A DNA stretch of 64,000 nt from Aulosira sp. ZfuVER01 (GTDB lineage Bacteria > Cyanobacteriota > Cyanobacteriia > Cyanobacteriales > Nostocaceae): the NCBI GenBank assembly GCA_034530615.2, contig JAVRCV020000052.1, positions 192,001 to 256,000 on the forward strand, written 5' to 3'. Both the position numbers and the translations under genes were made by a program. Below the pieces are notes generated by a model, which was not told the origin of the DNA, made no database searches, and saw only the letters and a program-made list of their open reading frames with translations. Below are positions 42,610 through 51,217 of the stretch, piece by piece; the first letter of the stretch is position 1; the number at the start of each line of letters is the position of its first letter.

Positions 42610-43944
42610 TTACAAATTGGTTGTGAGCCTTGCTTTTCTCAAAACAAATGTCAGAACCGTCTCTTGTTTGGAAATTATGTCGGCGGTTACTTGCATACCA
42701 GGTTGAATGGCATAGGATTGATTGCCTTTGGTGAGATGAAGTCTATCTGGCTGGATAGTCACCTCATAGTAAGGTGAAACCCCGATATTACTGTTAGTTT
42801 GAGGTGTAATCGCATCGGCGGTAATGCCTCTGACAGCGCCATTGATAGTGCCATAATCCGGATAAGGATAGGCAGAGATTCTCATAATTACTTTGCCTTC
42901 TGAACATTCAGTGACTTGAGCAGCTTTGCATAAGCGAACCTTACTAATATCAGCAGCATCTACACGAGCTTTGACTAGCAAAGGAGCTTGACTAGGAGCA
43001 ATTTGAGCGATCGCTTGTCCTGGTTGTACAACCTGGCCAGGATTTCTGATGTCCAGTTTCAAGACGCTTCCGGCTTCTAAAGTCCGAATCACAGTTTTTT
43101 GTAAATCCCGATTAATTTGTGTAATTTCTTGCTCGTCTAGGTTAATTTTATTCTGAAGGGCTATTTGACCTTGGATCAAGCTTTCTCGTTCTTTATTCAA
43201 TGCGGCGAGGGTAGACTCACCCTTGGCTTTTTCTTGGGCTATCCGTTCTTGGGTCATCGTCACAGCAGCTATACTCGGATTGAGTCCAGTTTTAGCGCGT
43301 TGCAGTTTGGCGATCGCTGCTTTAAAAGCTTGTTCTTTTTCCTTAATTTGCAGTGTGGCGATCGCTCCCGTATTACCTAACTGTTTATACCGCTTCAGTT
43401 CTTCCTTGGCAAACTCTAAAGTAGCTTTTGCTTCTTCTACTTCTGATTGAGTGATATTTTGTCTATCTTGATATTCTCTTTGATTACGACTGAGATCTGC
43501 TTTTGTCGAAGCTATCTCCCTTTGGATGGAATTAGCCTCAGCAGTTATTTGAGTTTGTAGCGCCTTCAATTGCGCATTTATTTGCGAAATTTGTGATTGA
43601 TTCTGTCGAATATTGTCAATGAGTTGGCTTTTTTTAGTCAGGAGTTGAGAGTCATCAATGATTGCGATCGCTTCACCCTTGGCAAGCGTCTGATTTTCTT
43701 TTACTAAGATAGCTTTAACAATTCCTTGACCTGATGCCTCAATAATTCTCTGTTCTCCTGCGGGACGGACAGTCGCAGGCGATCGCACAGTAATCGGATA
43801 TTTGATAATCGCCGCTAACAAAACCGCCAAACCACAAGTTCCGATCAAAACAACTCCCCCCAATTTTGTCCAACGGCTAATCGCCGGAACAAGTTCGTCA
43901 ATTTGGATTTGACGCAGTAATTCTGGGTTATGTTCACTCAGCAT
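42610..43944 (-). CDS. HlyD-family membrane fusion protein (copy 1)
   Basis: N-terminal TM, GIVKAILVKENQ, long coiled coil, AYPYPDYG, IQPGMQVTADI. Confidence 0.93.
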   Translation of the reverse strand: MLSEHNPELLRQIQIDELVPAISRWTKLGGVVLIGTCGLAVLLAAIIKYPITVRSPATVRPAGEQRIIEASGQGIVKAILVKENQTLAKGEAIAIIDDSQLLTKKSQLIDNIRQNQSQISQINAQLKALQTQITAEANSIQREIASTKADLSRNQREYQDRQNITQSEVEEAKATLEFAKEELKRYKQLGNTGAIATLQIKEKEQAFKAAIAKLQRAKTGLNPSIAAVTMTQERIAQEKAKGESTLAALNKERESLIQGQIALQNKINLDEQEITQINRDLQKTVIRTLEAGSVLKLDIRNPGQVVQPGQAIAQIAPSQAPLLVKARVDAADISKVRLCKAAQVTECSEGKVIMRISAYPYPDYGTINGAVRGITADAITPQTNSNIGVSPYYEVTIQPDRLHLTKGNQSYAIQPGMQVTADIISKQETVLTFVLRKARLTTNL

Positions 43945-44230: not shown

Positions 44231-44698
44231 CTTAGTTTTTTCTAGAAATTGCTCATTTAATTTACAAAAATTTAAAAATATATCTACTCATAAAAATCAA
44301 TTTCTCTACGCTGAGTAGAATAGCAGAGGTCGTTATGGTTAAAAAAATTTATAATTCTCAGCCTGCGTATGAGATGTCATAACCTTTGATAAATCTCAAA
44401 CAAGGAGGTTGATAAAGTTGAGAAACTTCCTTTATCAAAAAGGCTTATCTCTCTAGATATTTATACTTATCTCTATCTAAAGGATGATTTTCGCTGGAAA
44501 AAATAGCATTTAGTATAAATTGCATGAGTTAGCGCAAATCAATCAATTCAAACATTAAGAGATCAGATGCATTTACCAAGTTAAATGCACAAATTTTGAA
44601 CAGGTTAATTGATTGATGCTGACTTATAAATTGCTCAATCAATTATCAGAGCAATTTCCATTCAAACCAAAATTTGAATTAGGAACGGAGGCTTTATA

Positions 44699-44878
44699 AT
44701 GGCTAACGCATCAGGTTATGAACTATTTTCAATTTCTGAAAATTTTTTAACAGAATTATCAGCAGAAGATGAGTCTATAATTACAGGTGGCGGTGGCTCC
44801 TGCTACGGTGGAAGTAAGAGCAAGAGCAAGAAGAGCAAGAGCAAGAAGAGCAAGAGCAAGAGCAAAAAGTACTGCTAA
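44699..44878 (+). CDS. RiPP precursor peptide, 59 aa: double-glycine leader plus Ser/Lys-repeat core (absent from the ORF track)
   Basis: GGAGG RBS at 44687-44691, 7 nt before ATG; MANASGYELFSISENFLTELSAEDESIITGG|GGSCYGGSKSKSKKSKSKKSKSKSKKYC*; ELS..E...ITGG leader; first gene of a kinase/HopA1/C39-ABC run. Confidence 0.9.
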   Translation: MANASGYELFSISENFLTELSAEDESIITGGGGSCYGGSKSKSKKSKSKKSKSKSKKYC

Positions 44879-46302: not shown

Positions 46303-47391
46303 TTGATGATGCAATTGCGAGATTTACTACCTCATGAGATACCAAATGCTGCCTTAGAAGACATCGTTACCAAGGTTCAGATTCAATCTGACTTTACTAT
46401 TACCCATGCAGATTACCAACCTTTAAAACTTGCTGATGAAATCGTAGTATCTCTTCAAAACTTACCGATCGAAATCCAGAATAGGTATTTGAATCTGCAA
46501 TTGCGGAATTTTCTCTATGGCATTTATTACAATGGCCAATTAAAAGCTACCCTAGCAAACAATGTAAATCCAGATAGTTTATTAGAAATAAAAAAGCTAG
46601 AGAATAATCAAGCTGGCGCATTCAACCGAGAATTTTACGAAGACTTGCAGAAAAGTAACTGTGGTAAAGGCTACTTTGATCCAAGATGGCTTGTAGTGAA
46701 GCAAGAAAGCGATCATCTACTTGCTGTGCAAAAAGATGATTTGACATTGCATATTGAACCAGAACGCTATCTGCAATTAGCTGAACAATCGGCTAATGTT
46801 GGTGATGAAGTTGCTGTGCTGATGCCTCCTAACCTAATAGAACAGGCATATTATGTGGCAGTAAGTGATGCAGGTTTGGTGAATAAAACTCTTGCAGTAA
46901 ATATTAATTTTAATTTTATCTCTGAAGGTGCGATCGCATTGATGAAAAGTCTGACACAGCAACTTAACGAAATCAATATCCCTTTCACTTTTAAGGTTTT
47001 ATACGATCCTGATAATTACCAGCGTTGTGACTGTGGGGTGCTGCAATTTGAAAGTCACAACTACCACATAGTAAAGCAAATTCTTCAGACTGTGTATATA
47101 GCAAACAAATGCCTTTTTCGGGATTTAGTACCTCTGTTTACAAAGTTACTAGCGCCAGGGCTGAGTTTAGCAGAAGAACCAAATAATAAATTTACTGACC
47201 AAGAGAATTTTGGCATGAACCGCTGCCGAATATTGGCTAATGCCTTATTAGAAGCTTGGCAAGAAGGTGACAACTCCCAACAAGGAAAAATGCATTATGT
47301 AGATCGGCATTTCTCCCAACACTTAATTGATCTGCAACGCCCTTATCTTAATGCCAACTCTGAGGATATCTATCCGATGTTGGATTGTTGA
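46303..47391 (+). CDS. HopA1-family protein (LanY/TvaD-like phospho-lyase)
   Basis: LRNFLYGIYYNG, N.GKGYFDPRW, IPFTFKVLY.P..Y.R.D.GVL, VPLFTK.LAPGL.LAEEP, FGMNRC, RPYLN. Confidence 0.85.
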   Translation: MMMQLRDLLPHEIPNAALEDIVTKVQIQSDFTITHADYQPLKLADEIVVSLQNLPIEIQNRYLNLQLRNFLYGIYYNGQLKATLANNVNPDSLLEIKKLENNQAGAFNREFYEDLQKSNCGKGYFDPRWLVVKQESDHLLAVQKDDLTLHIEPERYLQLAEQSANVGDEVAVLMPPNLIEQAYYVAVSDAGLVNKTLAVNINFNFISEGAIALMKSLTQQLNEINIPFTFKVLYDPDNYQRCDCGVLQFESHNYHIVKQILQTVYIANKCLFRDLVPLFTKLLAPGLSLAEEPNNKFTDQENFGMNRCRILANALLEAWQEGDNSQQGKMHYVDRHFSQHLIDLQRPYLNANSEDIYPMLDC

Positions 47392-47480
47392 TTAGATGAT
47401 GACGATTAATTACCCTATTACCAGGGTGCGCGTTATAGCATGATTGTATTTGCTTGATCGGGGATATTTAGGATAGGGAT

Positions 47481-49634
47481 GTGTCTAATCTAAAATACCG
47501 AGTTATAAGACAATATAGCGAAGAAGATTGTGGGGCTGCTTGTATTGCTTCTATTGCCAAATATTACGGACGGAGTTTTGCTCTCAACCGCATCCGTGAA
47601 GCGGTAGGCACTGGGCAACTGGGAACTACTTTGTTAGGTCTGAGACGAGGAATAGAAGCTTTTGGCTTTAATGCACGTTCCGGCAAAGCATCATCCGATT
47701 TTCTCCACAAGCTGGAACAAATGCCCTTACCAGCAATCATCCACTGGAAGGGTAATCATTGGGTGATTTTGTACGGTCGGCGCGGTAAAAATTATATCAT
47801 TGGCGATCCTGCCATTGGTCTACGTTATCTCTCCAAACAGGAGTTAATTGAGGGTTGGACTAATTGGGTACTGCTACTCTTACAGCCAGATCCCAAGCGT
47901 TTTTTTGTCCAATCGGATGACAAAACTAACCACCTGGAGAAATTTCTTCGGTTAATCCTACCCTACCGAGGTGTGATTTTTGAAGCTGTACTTTGTGCCC
48001 AATTTATTGGTCTGCTTTCTTTAGCTTCACCTTTCTTTATTCAAATTCTCACGGATGATGTTTTAGTTAGAGGAGATTTTCAGCTGCTTTTTGGTATAGT
48101 GCTGGCAGTTACAGTGATGTATATTGTCAGAAGTGGGCTGAAACTAGTAGAAAATATTCTAATAGCTCATTTTGCGCAACGTTTAGAATTAACTTTAACC
48201 CTAGAATTTGGTCAACAAATTCTCCGCCTCCCACTTTCTTATTATGAGTCTCGTCGTAGTGGTGAAATTGTTAGCCGATTAAGAGATATTCAACAAATTA
48301 ATAAATTAATCGCCGATGCGATCGTGAGTTTTCCCAGTAAGTTTTTTATTGCCAGCGTTTCTTTTATCTTGATGTTATTTTATAGCTGGAAACTGACAAT
48401 CACAGGCTTAGCAATCGCTGGGGTGATGACTCTATCTACAGTAGTTTTTCTGCCCGCACTCCAGCAGAAAAATCGTAAACTCATGGTTTTAGAAGCCGAA
48501 AACCAAGGTGTGCTAGTAGAAACATTTAAGGGAGCATTAACGCTAAAAACTACTACAGCTGCTCCGGAATTTTGGGAAGAATTTCAGCGCCGATTTAGTC
48601 AATTAGCAAACCTGGAATTGAGTACTATAAAAATTGCGATTATTAATAAGCAATTTTCTAGGTTAGTTTCTGATATTGGTGGTGCTACCTTACTATATAT
48701 TGGTAGTAGCCTGGTGATTAGCAAAGAGTTAAGTATCGGTCAGTTGCTAGCATTCACTAGCCTCAATTATAATGTTGGGTCTTTAATTGATTTTTTTGTT
48801 GACTTTGCAGACGATTTTACTCGTGTCAGAACAGCGACATCAAGACTTCAGGAAGTCGTCAATTCTACACCAGAAACTCAAGGAGATGCTAACAAATCTT
48901 GGACAGAAATTCCTGATAATGCAGACATTGTTTGCAGCAACCTAAACTTTCACTATCCTGGCAGAGTTGAATTACTAGAGAACTTTTCTGTTACTCTTCC
49001 TGGTAGTAAAGTCATTGCTCTAATTGGCGCATCAGGTTGTGGTAAAAGTTCTCTGGCAAAAATCATTGCTGGGTTATATACAACTCAATCAGGAAATATC
49101 CGCTTTGGCATTTATAACCAGCAAGATTTGTCTTTAGACTGTCTGCGAAGACAGGTGGTGCTTGTTCCCCAAGAACCTCACTTTTGGAGTCGTTCAATTA
49201 TTGAAAATTTTCGCTTAGGTTCTCCCAACGTTTCCTTTAAAAAAATTGTCGAGGCTTGCCGAATTGCTGAGGCTGATGATTTTGTGAGCAAGCTACCCGA
49301 AAAATATCAAACCGTTTTAGGTGAATTTGGTGCTAACATTTCTGGCGGACAAAGACAAAGATTAGCCATAGCTAGAGCAATTGTCAACGATCCACCCATT
49401 CTGATTTTAGATGAATCAACTGCTGGACTCGATCCTGTGAGCGAAGCTAAAGTTTTACATAAACTATTCTCCTATCGTCAAGGTAAAACCACGATTCTCA
49501 TTAGCCACCGTCCCAGAGTAATTGAACGTGCTGATTGGATTGTGGTATTAGAGCAGGGTAGGTTGAAAATACAAGGTTCTTTAGAAAAATTGCGATCGCT
49601 ACCTGGTAAGCATTTAGATTTTTTAACTCCCTAA
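47481..49634 (+). CDS. Peptidase-containing ABC transporter (C39 + TMD + ATPase)
   Basis: QYSEEDCGAAC (catalytic Cys), HWKGNHW, IGDP; Walker A GASGCGKS, ISGGQRQR, ILDES. Confidence 0.95.
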   Translation: MSNLKYRVIRQYSEEDCGAACIASIAKYYGRSFALNRIREAVGTGQLGTTLLGLRRGIEAFGFNARSGKASSDFLHKLEQMPLPAIIHWKGNHWVILYGRRGKNYIIGDPAIGLRYLSKQELIEGWTNWVLLLLQPDPKRFFVQSDDKTNHLEKFLRLILPYRGVIFEAVLCAQFIGLLSLASPFFIQILTDDVLVRGDFQLLFGIVLAVTVMYIVRSGLKLVENILIAHFAQRLELTLTLEFGQQILRLPLSYYESRRSGEIVSRLRDIQQINKLIADAIVSFPSKFFIASVSFILMLFYSWKLTITGLAIAGVMTLSTVVFLPALQQKNRKLMVLEAENQGVLVETFKGALTLKTTTAAPEFWEEFQRRFSQLANLELSTIKIAIINKQFSRLVSDIGGATLLYIGSSLVISKELSIGQLLAFTSLNYNVGSLIDFFVDFADDFTRVRTATSRLQEVVNSTPETQGDANKSWTEIPDNADIVCSNLNFHYPGRVELLENFSVTLPGSKVIALIGASGCGKSSLAKIIAGLYTTQSGNIRFGIYNQQDLSLDCLRRQVVLVPQEPHFWSRSIIENFRLGSPNVSFKKIVEACRIAEADDFVSKLPEKYQTVLGEFGANISGGQRQRLAIARAIVNDPPILILDESTAGLDPVSEAKVLHKLFSYRQGKTTILISHRPRVIERADWIVVLEQGRLKIQGSLEKLRSLPGKHLDFLTP

Positions 49635-49726: not shown

Positions 49727-51061
49727 CTATAAATCTGTTAGCAACCTTGCTTTTCTTAACATAAATGTCAATACTGTTTCTTGTTGGGCAATAATTTCAG
49801 CCGTTACTTCCATCCCAGATTGAATAGCATAGGATTGATTGCTTTTGCTCAGATTGAGTTGATCGGGCTGGATGATTACCTCATAGTAAGGTACAGATGC
49901 GAGATTGCTATTAGTTTGAGGCGTAATTGCATCAGATGTAATACCTCTGACAGCACCATTTAGCGTACCGTAATCTGGGTAAGGATAGGCAGAAATCCGC
50001 ATAATGACTCTACCCTCTGTACATTGCTTTACTTGGATGGCTTTACATAGCCGCACTTTACTAATATCAGCAGCAACTACACGAGCTTTAACAACTAAAG
50101 GCGCTTGATTGGGGGAAATTTGCGCGATCGCATCTCCAGCGCGTACCACTTGTCCAGGATTTCGGATTTCTAGTTTCAGGATAGTACCTGTGTCTGAGGC
50201 TCGAATGATAGTTTTTTGTAGGTCTGTTGAGACTTGTTTGAATTCTGTTTGAGCAGTGTTGATTTGGTTTTGAATTTCAACGTGGCGACGGATTAGTTCT
50301 TCTTGTTCTTTCTTCAAAATCGCCAGGGTAGATTCACCCTTGGCTTTTTCTTGAGCAATTCGTTCACTTGCGATCGCTACTGTTGCATTACTAGGGTTAA
50401 GTCCAGCTTTGGCACGTTGGAGTCTAGCCAATGACGCTTTAAACGCCTGTTCTTTCTCCTTAATTTGCAGAGTGGCGATCGCTCCTGTATTCCCCAGTTG
50501 CTGATAGCGCTTCATTTCTTCCTTAGCCAATTCTAGAGCGGCTTCCGCTTCTTGCACTTGTGTCTGAGTAGCGATCTGTTGGTCTTGATAATCCCGTTGG
50601 TTGCGACTTAAGTCAGCTTCAGCAGAGGCGATCGCTCGTTGTATAGAATTAGATTCAGCAGTGATTTGAGTTTTTAAGGCCTTGATTTGGGCAACAATTT
50701 GTGCTAACTGTAAATTATTCTGGTGAATCGTGCCTAAAATTTGGCTTTTTTTGGTTTCCAGTTGAGTAGAGTCAATGTAGGCGATCGCATCCCCCTGATT
50801 GACTACCTGATTTTCTTTCACCAAAATACTTTTGACAATTCCTTCACTAGTTGATTGCACTAAGCGGACATCACCAGTCGGACGGACTGTGGCAGATGCG
50901 GTAACGGTGACATTGTACTGAGTCACCCCAGCCAAAATCAAAGCTACACCTACAGTTCCAATGAGGAATAAACCCCCTAATGTTGTCCAAAGACTAATTG
51001 GTGGCAGAAATTGGTCACTGCTGATTGGGCGAATCAAGTCGGGACTGGGGTCGCTATGCAT
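49727..51061 (-). CDS. HlyD-family membrane fusion protein (copy 2)
   Basis: Likely start MHSDPSPDL (51061), by comparison with copy 1; same TM / coiled-coil / AYPYPDYG layout. Confidence 0.93.
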   Translation of the reverse strand: MHSDPSPDLIRPISSDQFLPPISLWTTLGGLFLIGTVGVALILAGVTQYNVTVTASATVRPTGDVRLVQSTSEGIVKSILVKENQVVNQGDAIAYIDSTQLETKKSQILGTIHQNNLQLAQIVAQIKALKTQITAESNSIQRAIASAEADLSRNQRDYQDQQIATQTQVQEAEAALELAKEEMKRYQQLGNTGAIATLQIKEKEQAFKASLARLQRAKAGLNPSNATVAIASERIAQEKAKGESTLAILKKEQEELIRRHVEIQNQINTAQTEFKQVSTDLQKTIIRASDTGTILKLEIRNPGQVVRAGDAIAQISPNQAPLVVKARVVAADISKVRLCKAIQVKQCTEGRVIMRISAYPYPDYGTLNGAVRGITSDAITPQTNSNLASVPYYEVIIQPDQLNLSKSNQSYAIQSGMEVTAEIIAQQETVLTFMLRKARLLTDL

Positions 51062-51217
51062 GAGCGCGAGAATAAGTAAGCAGCATATCAATTTACACAC
51101 AATAAATCCTGTATAGTCAATGGAAATACTACGGGGTTTTTTGTGGCTGCCTTAATTTCACTCTAACCTTCAGCAGCTAGGGCTTGCTCGACTGTTAATT
51201 TTATACTTGAGGTGTTG

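Follow-up and report, generated by a model that had tools for sequence, protein, structure and literature searches.

The closest described relatives of the locus analysed here are the cyanobacterial Family 1A clusters (Eyles et al., 2021; PMC8153245), whose precursors are also known as type-B LanA (Liang et al., 2022; PMC9486802) and which, in the available text of these reports, have the same gene set and leader family. Their cores are described there as highly variable and their products as unknown. The accessible part of the Eyles supplement includes four Ser-Lys- or Arg-rich precursors among its rows (networks 1, 103 and 142), and the available sections of the Family 1A descriptions contain no polycationic clade, lyase losses, single-precursor habit or kinase–lyase fusions. 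The folds of the two enzymes are shared with the kinase LanK and the lyase LanY of class V lanthipeptides (CaoKY and LxmKY; PDB entries 9DK1–9DK3), with the kinase catalytic set and its spacing conserved. In the accessible part of the CaoKY study (PMC9486802), elimination by CaoY was nearly abolished by the mutation R187A and abolished by K219A, each leaving mostly phosphorylated peptide. Tyr236 is given as conserved, with no mutant of it found in that text, and a Lys residue beside phosphoserine hindered CaoY, which the authors ascribe to repulsion by Arg187 and Lys219.

Few ribosomal peptides bear phosphate as their final modification (PMC12639078). One precedent for a dehydratase that has decayed to a kinase is the phospeptin system. 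Its dehydratase carries mutations in the elimination residues, and the end product, according to the available text of Paoli et al. (2022; PMC9259500), is a linear RiPP that is phosphorylated. Phospeptin is made by a single LanM-type enzyme and is di-phosphorylated on Thr, in contrast to the LanK/LanY pair, polycationic core and up to nine predicted sites of the cluster described below; mutated elimination residues are common to both.

Organization of the locus

The analysed stretch (the window) comprises 64 000 nucleotides of Aulosira sp. ZfuVER01 (Nostocaceae; contig JAVRCV020000052.1, positions 192 001–256 000 of the forward strand). The features of the cluster, in window coordinates, are as follows.

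42610–43944, minus strand: first HlyD-type adaptor, divergently transcribed
44687–44691, plus strand: GGAGG, a sequence resembling a ribosome-binding site, 7 nt 5' of the ATG
44699–44878, plus strand: precursor open reading frame, 59 amino acids, double-glycine type
44699–44791, plus strand: acidic double-glycine leader of Family 1A type, 31 amino acids, ending in Ile-Thr-Gly-Gly
44792–44878, plus strand: core of 28 amino acids and stop codon
45107–46246, plus strand: APH-fold, LanK-like Ser/Thr kinase, 379 amino acids (Pfam APH, E = 4.5e-9)
46303–47391, plus strand: HopA1/LanY-fold protein, predicted pseudo-lyase, 362 amino acids (Pfam HopA1, E = 4.6e-53)
47481–49634, plus strand: peptidase-containing ABC exporter (C39, membrane and ATPase parts)
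49727–51100, minus strand: second HlyD-type adaptor, 67% amino-acid and 73% nucleotide identity to the first

With adjacent APH kinase and HopA1 genes and a precursor with a double-glycine leader, the cluster is of the known cyanobacterial type, Family 1A as defined in the accessible text of Eyles et al. (PMC8153245). Ten protein look-ups returned only 'hypothetical protein' or no name. The kinase family is near-universal in the taxonomic family of the host (296 of 301 genomes), and the host genome contains three further kinase/HopA1 pairs; one leader profile matches the window precursor and paralogous precursors on two other contigs of this genome (C17 and C55). Four paralogous C39 exporters with 60–64% identity are located on contigs C16, C32, C41 and C49 of the same genome (G000), where no precursor of the window's leader family was detected. 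The exporter of the window has the C39 catalytic residues Gln11, Cys17, His93 and Asp109.

The kinase and HopA1 genes are present in all of 33 related loci, an ABC gene in 32 and an HlyD gene in 27. The position of the first HlyD-type adaptor is common to loci L001, L002, L009 and L085–L087, and the second adaptor is missing at L001, the orthologous locus of Calothrix NIES-2100 and the closest relative. No phosphatase, methyltransferase, cyclase or oxidase is a conserved neighbour (456 ORFs from the 33 loci clustered, 54 scanned against Pfam) and no immunity gene is recurrent in the 33 loci; other recurrent neighbours are a two-component family in nine of the 33 and small groups of kin. LanD, LanX and LanC are absent from the 18 window ORFs scanned and not recurrent in the 33 loci, and the window cluster contains no LanM domain. 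The cluster thus differs from class V lanthipeptide clusters in the missing LanD, LanX and LanC, in its C39 exporter and, as detailed below, in the lyase positions equivalent to Arg187 and Tyr236.

The precursor peptide

The core that follows Ile-Thr-Gly-Gly is as the initial annotation had read it, with 28 residues that include nine Ser and 11 Lys and no acidic or aliphatic residue, the others being four Gly, two Cys and two Tyr. Its unmodified mass is 2972 Da and its net charge is +11. The run of four Gly residues had left the cleavage site ambiguous; this is narrowed by the aligned relatives, since the cores without an initial Gly (23 of the 34 described below) align the double glycine to Gly30-Gly31, and the cut is therefore placed after Gly31. 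The mirror-image Cys-Tyr and Tyr-Cys ends are present in the window core as first noted but are not conserved: Cys-Tyr occurs within the first eight residues of two of the 34 cores and Tyr-Cys within the last six of seven, and on these counts the bracket was rejected as a family feature. Any Cys is found in 14 of the 34, so that closure through terminal Cys residues, also proposed initially, does not generalize.

The Ser-Lys tract (44813–44869) holds eight of the nine Ser residues and is a near-pure AGC/AAG repeat, with AGC for seven of the nine Ser codons and AAG for ten of the 11 Lys codons. Logan contigs from runs X1–X3 are broken inside the tract. The depth over the tract relative to its flanks is ∼2–2.4-fold for the 31-mer and ∼1–1.25-fold for the bridging 44-mer, which fits the assembled number of repeat units, in a check that is not independent because the runs possibly derive from the source sample. 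The precursor matched no family in Pfam or NCBIfam, and a scan for promoters and terminators returned nothing above chance. Two other frames across the tract (46 amino acids on the plus strand and 38 on the minus strand) were rejected for want of a leader.

Kinase and lyase active-site residues

The window kinase matches the NCBIfam LxmK model with E = 3.6e-23 and a score of 82, below the cut-off of 315. It retains Lys36, Lys53, Glu70, His216, Asp218, Asn223 and Asp243, of which Lys36, Lys53, Asp218, Asn223 and Asp243 correspond, by sequence, to the LanK catalytic set and match the spacing given for LxmK in the accessible text of PMC12291118. For the lyase, a cyanobacterial HopA1 profile was aligned to the solved structure of LxmY (9dk1_B; E = 5e-10), which puts the Arg, Lys, Arg and Tyr that are usual in the cyanobacterial proteins at LxmY chain positions 189, 221, 231 and 238. 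The CaoY numbering used here was reached via LxmY with a deduced offset of +2 residues, with which Phe169/Tyr171 in the available part of a review (PMC12141560) also agree. The model of the window protein has a pLDDT of 88, and its best Foldseek match is LxmY 9dk3_B (E = 2.5e-16, TM-score 0.70). Where a class V LanY has Arg187, Lys219, Arg229 and Tyr236, the window protein has Asn200, Lys231, Arg241 and Gln248, and it is likely to be catalytically dead.

All collected loci yielded 187 pairs of a kinase and an adjacent HopA1 gene, or 158 after merging at 97% identity. The Arg187 equivalent is kept in 115 of the 158, with all four residues in 113; 34 pairs, including that of the window, combine an intact kinase with a lyase without the Arg, eight are degenerate in both enzymes and one is without data. 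L001, in which the lyase is truncated, was excluded from the column counts and the lyase tree, and L160, without data, was also excluded. Among 87 lyase positions that are at least 95% conserved in the Arg-keepers, the Arg187 equivalent is the only one kept in none of the 33 Arg-less lyases, and eight different residues replace it. The Tyr236 equivalent is kept in two of the 33, the Lys219 equivalent in 28 and the Arg229 equivalent in 25, while Lys53, Glu70, His216, Asp218, Asn223 and Asp243 of the kinase are kept in all 33 pairs. Acidic residues have been gained in both the kinase and the lyase of these clusters, which suggests that both enzymes handle cationic peptides.

The eight doubly degenerate pairs (L004:10761–13364, L091, L094, L122, L132, L175, L189 and L194) are second pairs in which the kinase is without its catalytic Asp and the lyase without its Arg. 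They form one clade with Cys-containing precursors, several adjoin an intact pair, and they could be kinase-fold cyclases like LanX/RosX.

A polycationic precursor family

A precursor profile built from eight rows matched 12 of 301 genomes of the family, 21 of 401 genomes of the class and 76 cluster representatives. Near relatives (Calothrix NIES-2100, two Rivularia records and some Nostocaceae) have Ser-Lys or Ser-Arg tracts, and remoter ones have long Arg blocks between Ser-X-Ser flanks or Thr-Arg repeats. Of the 34 cores beside Arg-less lyases, 18 are Arg-rich rather than Ser-Lys, and all contain Ser or Thr, the Ser-free cores having Thr-Arg repeats. Codons and residues vary among copies (TCT/AAA, AGT/AAG, CGT/CGC; Lys or Arg; Ser or Thr) with the charge kept, and the lyases of these clusters have a median identity of 39%. 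At distance 2 the cores have 151 Ser/Thr pairs, compared with 57 ± 6 in shuffled cores (72 compared with 21 ± 4 in the Arg-rich cores alone), and distances 1 and 3 are not enriched; Arg-keeping clusters have a weaker excess, at both distance 2 and distance 3. An unselected microsatellite with frameshifts, which the initial annotation had named as an outcome that would speak against its proposal, was not seen, as all 34 cores are open to the stop codon and cationic, in a collection that takes only open frames with a leader and that frameshifted copies would escape. Throughout Cyanobacteria, homologous clusters encode cores that are rich in Lys or Arg and follow an alternating Ser/Thr-X register, and the tract is thus not a stray microsatellite.

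The leaders of these clusters have Glu at position -7 in 32 of 34 cases, whereas Arg-keeping clusters have no dominant residue there; a single precursor is present in 30 of 32 polycationic clusters, compared with several precursors in 65 of 100 comparison clusters. In nine of the 34 (L065–L071, L075 and L079) the kinase and HopA1 protein are fused into ∼780–850 amino acids, all with Arg/Lys-rich cores. A later search brought up one more precursor of Ser-Lys type (L231), again next to a lyase without the Arg. The median net charge of the cores is +13 unmodified and -3 with all Ser and Thr phosphorylated. Net charge and the number of Ser plus Thr are uncorrelated (Spearman -0.05), and the idea that basic residues balance the Ser/Thr residues in charge was dropped.

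All 34 cores next to Arg-less lyases have a net charge of at least +5, compared with 16 of 259 next to Arg-keeping ones. The best Lys + Arg fraction per cluster is 0.17–0.63 (median 0.42) in the Arg-less clusters and at most 0.21 in the Arg-keeping clusters, the latter sampled mostly from Nostocaceae and metagenome contigs. The precursor profile, which itself selects cationic cores, was the source of 20 of the 34 Arg-less clusters; among clusters found by kinase searches alone and having a precursor, 12 of 12 are cationic. The three Arg-keeping pairs of the host genome have precursors at two, neither of them polycationic. A single, modestly supported clade of the kinase tree (SH-aLRT 85) holds 32 of the 34 Arg-less pairs, and in the lyase tree one split separates the Arg-keeping from the other rows; both trees were computed by a quick method from subsets that included 45 and 30 of the 115 Arg-keeping rows. 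As the loss of the Arg was, by these trees, probably a single evolutionary event, the counts of the association are not independent.

In L001 (9175–11674) an 828-bp deletion, corresponding to window positions 46998–47825, takes the C-terminal part of HopA1 and the C39 domain and leaves the precursor and kinase intact. Within 14 kb of two cationic Ser/Lys precursors (L223:5317–5544 and L224:8153–8491) neither a kinase nor a HopA1 gene is present, and these precursors may be modified in trans or remain unmodified. The deletion and these orphans indicate that some lineages can do without the locus.

Several other precursors were observed. P0013, P0015, P0037, P0059 and P0070 share the leader type and have cores with at most one Ser that are Asp/Lys/Tyr- or His/Tyr-rich. 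Double-glycine precursors with His/Tyr/Ser-rich cores occur in Nostocaceae at L227, L229, L230, L233, L237, L240, L249 and L251, where neither a kinase nor a HopA1 gene lies within 1.5 kb, and are possible secreted metal-binding peptides. L098, L100, L110, L117, L124, L142 and others, of a kind widespread in Nostocaceae, are Arg-keeping loci with arrays of at least five near-identical precursors, which end in a Leu-Ala-Lys-Ser-Phe-Ser-like motif.

Predicted product and role

The exported product of the window cluster is probably a multiply Ser-phosphorylated, Lys-rich 28-mer and not a dehydrated peptide. The CaoY mutant R187A leaves mostly phosphopeptide, which makes a poly-phosphoserine/Lys product likely for this cluster, and of the two options raised initially the zwitterionic phosphoserine/Lys peptide is favoured by the intact kinase and by the loss of the Arg187 and Tyr236 equivalents across the polycationic clade. 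In the proposed pathway, the leader would bind the kinase, as it does in models of CaoK and LxmK, and the kinase would phosphorylate the alternating Ser residues; full phosphorylation would bring the core from +11 to about -7. The HopA1-fold partner, with little or no elimination activity, would serve as a stabilizing subunit whose acidified face binds the polycation, and the C39 transporter would cut after Gly31 and export the core together with HlyD and TolC. In the accessible text of the respective sources, the solubility of CaoK (PMC9486802) and that of LxmK (PMC12141560) depend on the lyase partner; this dependence would account for the retention of a dead partner and for its fusion to the kinase in nine of the 34 clusters.

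The role is the weakest step. Tentatively, the peptide may act as an extracellular polyampholyte that binds cations, the anionic sheath or surfaces. We lean towards the sheath and attachment because of the (pSer-X)n register of caddisfly silk and because of double-glycine peptides in biofilm and host contact. In caddisfly H-fibroin, phosphoserines alternate with X residues, some of which are Arg, and there is bridging by Ca2+ (available text of PMC4929942); it is a 300-kDa protein and the likeness implies no sequence homology. The double-glycine peptides of the EbfG1–4/PteB system (PMC4997328) and nostolanthin (10.64898/2026.08.14.744816), a LanM product, have roles in biofilm or host contact; both systems are cyanobacterial and use C39 export, and the accessible text of the two sources reports neither a kinase/HopA1 pair nor a polycationic core for them. 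Diatom silaffins share with the window core the idea of zwitterionic phosphate and cationic groups (accessible part of PMC11733937), but they are peptides of diatom silica that promote its deposition in vivo, whereas the host here is a cyanobacterium, and their cations include Lys-bound long-chain polyamines, a matching enzyme for which is not recurrent in clusters of the window type. The resemblance to silaffins drawn at first holds for composition only: Lys-modifying genes are not recurrent in the clusters (a methyltransferase is present in two Rivularia loci only), though one encoded elsewhere may act in trans, about half of the cores are Arg-rich, and membership is not supported.

A different use of the same phosphorylation chemistry ranks next after the polyampholyte role and is nearly as likely: phosphate would mask, inside the cell, a protamine-like polycation that binds nucleic acids or membranes, and phosphatases outside would unmask an antimicrobial or flocculating peptide. 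The probability given to this masking role, a rather low one, is a share of that assigned to the phosphorylated product. The median charge shift from +13 to -3 is consistent with it, as is the arrangement of the Arg-rich cores, in which a block of Arg in the middle is flanked by Ser on either side and which resembles that of protamines. APH-fold kinases provide self-protection in antibiotic producers, and two of them, Cph and Vph, are weak matches to the window kinase. The strict alternating register would nevertheless be superfluous for simple masking, and the 33 loci contain no recurrent phosphatase or immunity gene.

It is also conceivable, though unlikely, that the lyase is not dead but re-tuned, with the Arg dropped, acidic residues gained and Lys or Arg of the substrate replacing the Arg, to give a Dha/Dhb-rich product; this would cross-link via Cys or Lys, perhaps spontaneously at the high pH near photosynthesizing cells. 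The Dha/Lys cross-linker suggested as the second initial option is weakened by the lyase losses and draws support from the Lys219 equivalent that is kept in most of the Arg-less lyases, along with Arg229 and the lyase Asp243 (28 of 33). Acidic gains near the site are directional, at positions 180 (88%), 235 (79%) and 200 (52%), the hindrance of CaoY by Lys beside phosphoserine means that loss of the Arg could be adaptive, and nostolanthin, in the accessible text, oligomerizes via Dhb and Cys at alkaline pH (10.64898/2026.08.14.744816). Against this, the Arg and Tyr are both lost and replaced by many different residues, no newly conserved basic residue exceeds 48%, Lys219 and Arg229 are lost in five and eight of 33 compared with one of 115 each in the Arg-keepers, and 20 of 34 cores are Cys-free. 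Export of a bare peptide, or a decaying accessory locus with a tract that is filler from slippage, is the least probable reading. It would account for the near-pure AGC/AAG repeat of the window copy, the patchy spread (12 of 301 family genomes), the broken L001 orthologue and the orphan cationic precursors, but not for 34 open, cationic cores maintained with differing codons and residues beside such divergent lyases, for the invariant catalytic residues of the kinase, or for acidic gains in both enzymes that suggest co-adaptation to the substrate.

Implications

The cluster type is known, and the polycationic clade and the loss of lyase residues appear to be the new part. Neither is described in the literature searched, outside which most subscription papers lie, and no product of a cyanobacterial kinase/HopA1 cluster was found described there. 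The clade predicts ladders of +80 Da instead of -18 Da. It offers a natural pseudo-enzyme that can be compared with intact paralogues from one and the same host, and it may also supply a leader-guided kinase for dense phosphoserine peptides of adhesive or mineralization use. As a more general and somewhat more tentative proposal, cyanobacteria may use a dedicated polykinase and its pseudo-lyase, both derived from a class V lanthipeptide dehydratase, to secrete short protamine-like (pSer/pThr-X)n polyampholytes for the sheath, mat or attachment. If the matrix role is correct, a small secreted peptide would be tied to cyanobacterial attachment or calcification, and, if the polyampholyte reading is correct, these peptides would be a bacterial counterpart to phosphoprotein glues and biomineral templates.
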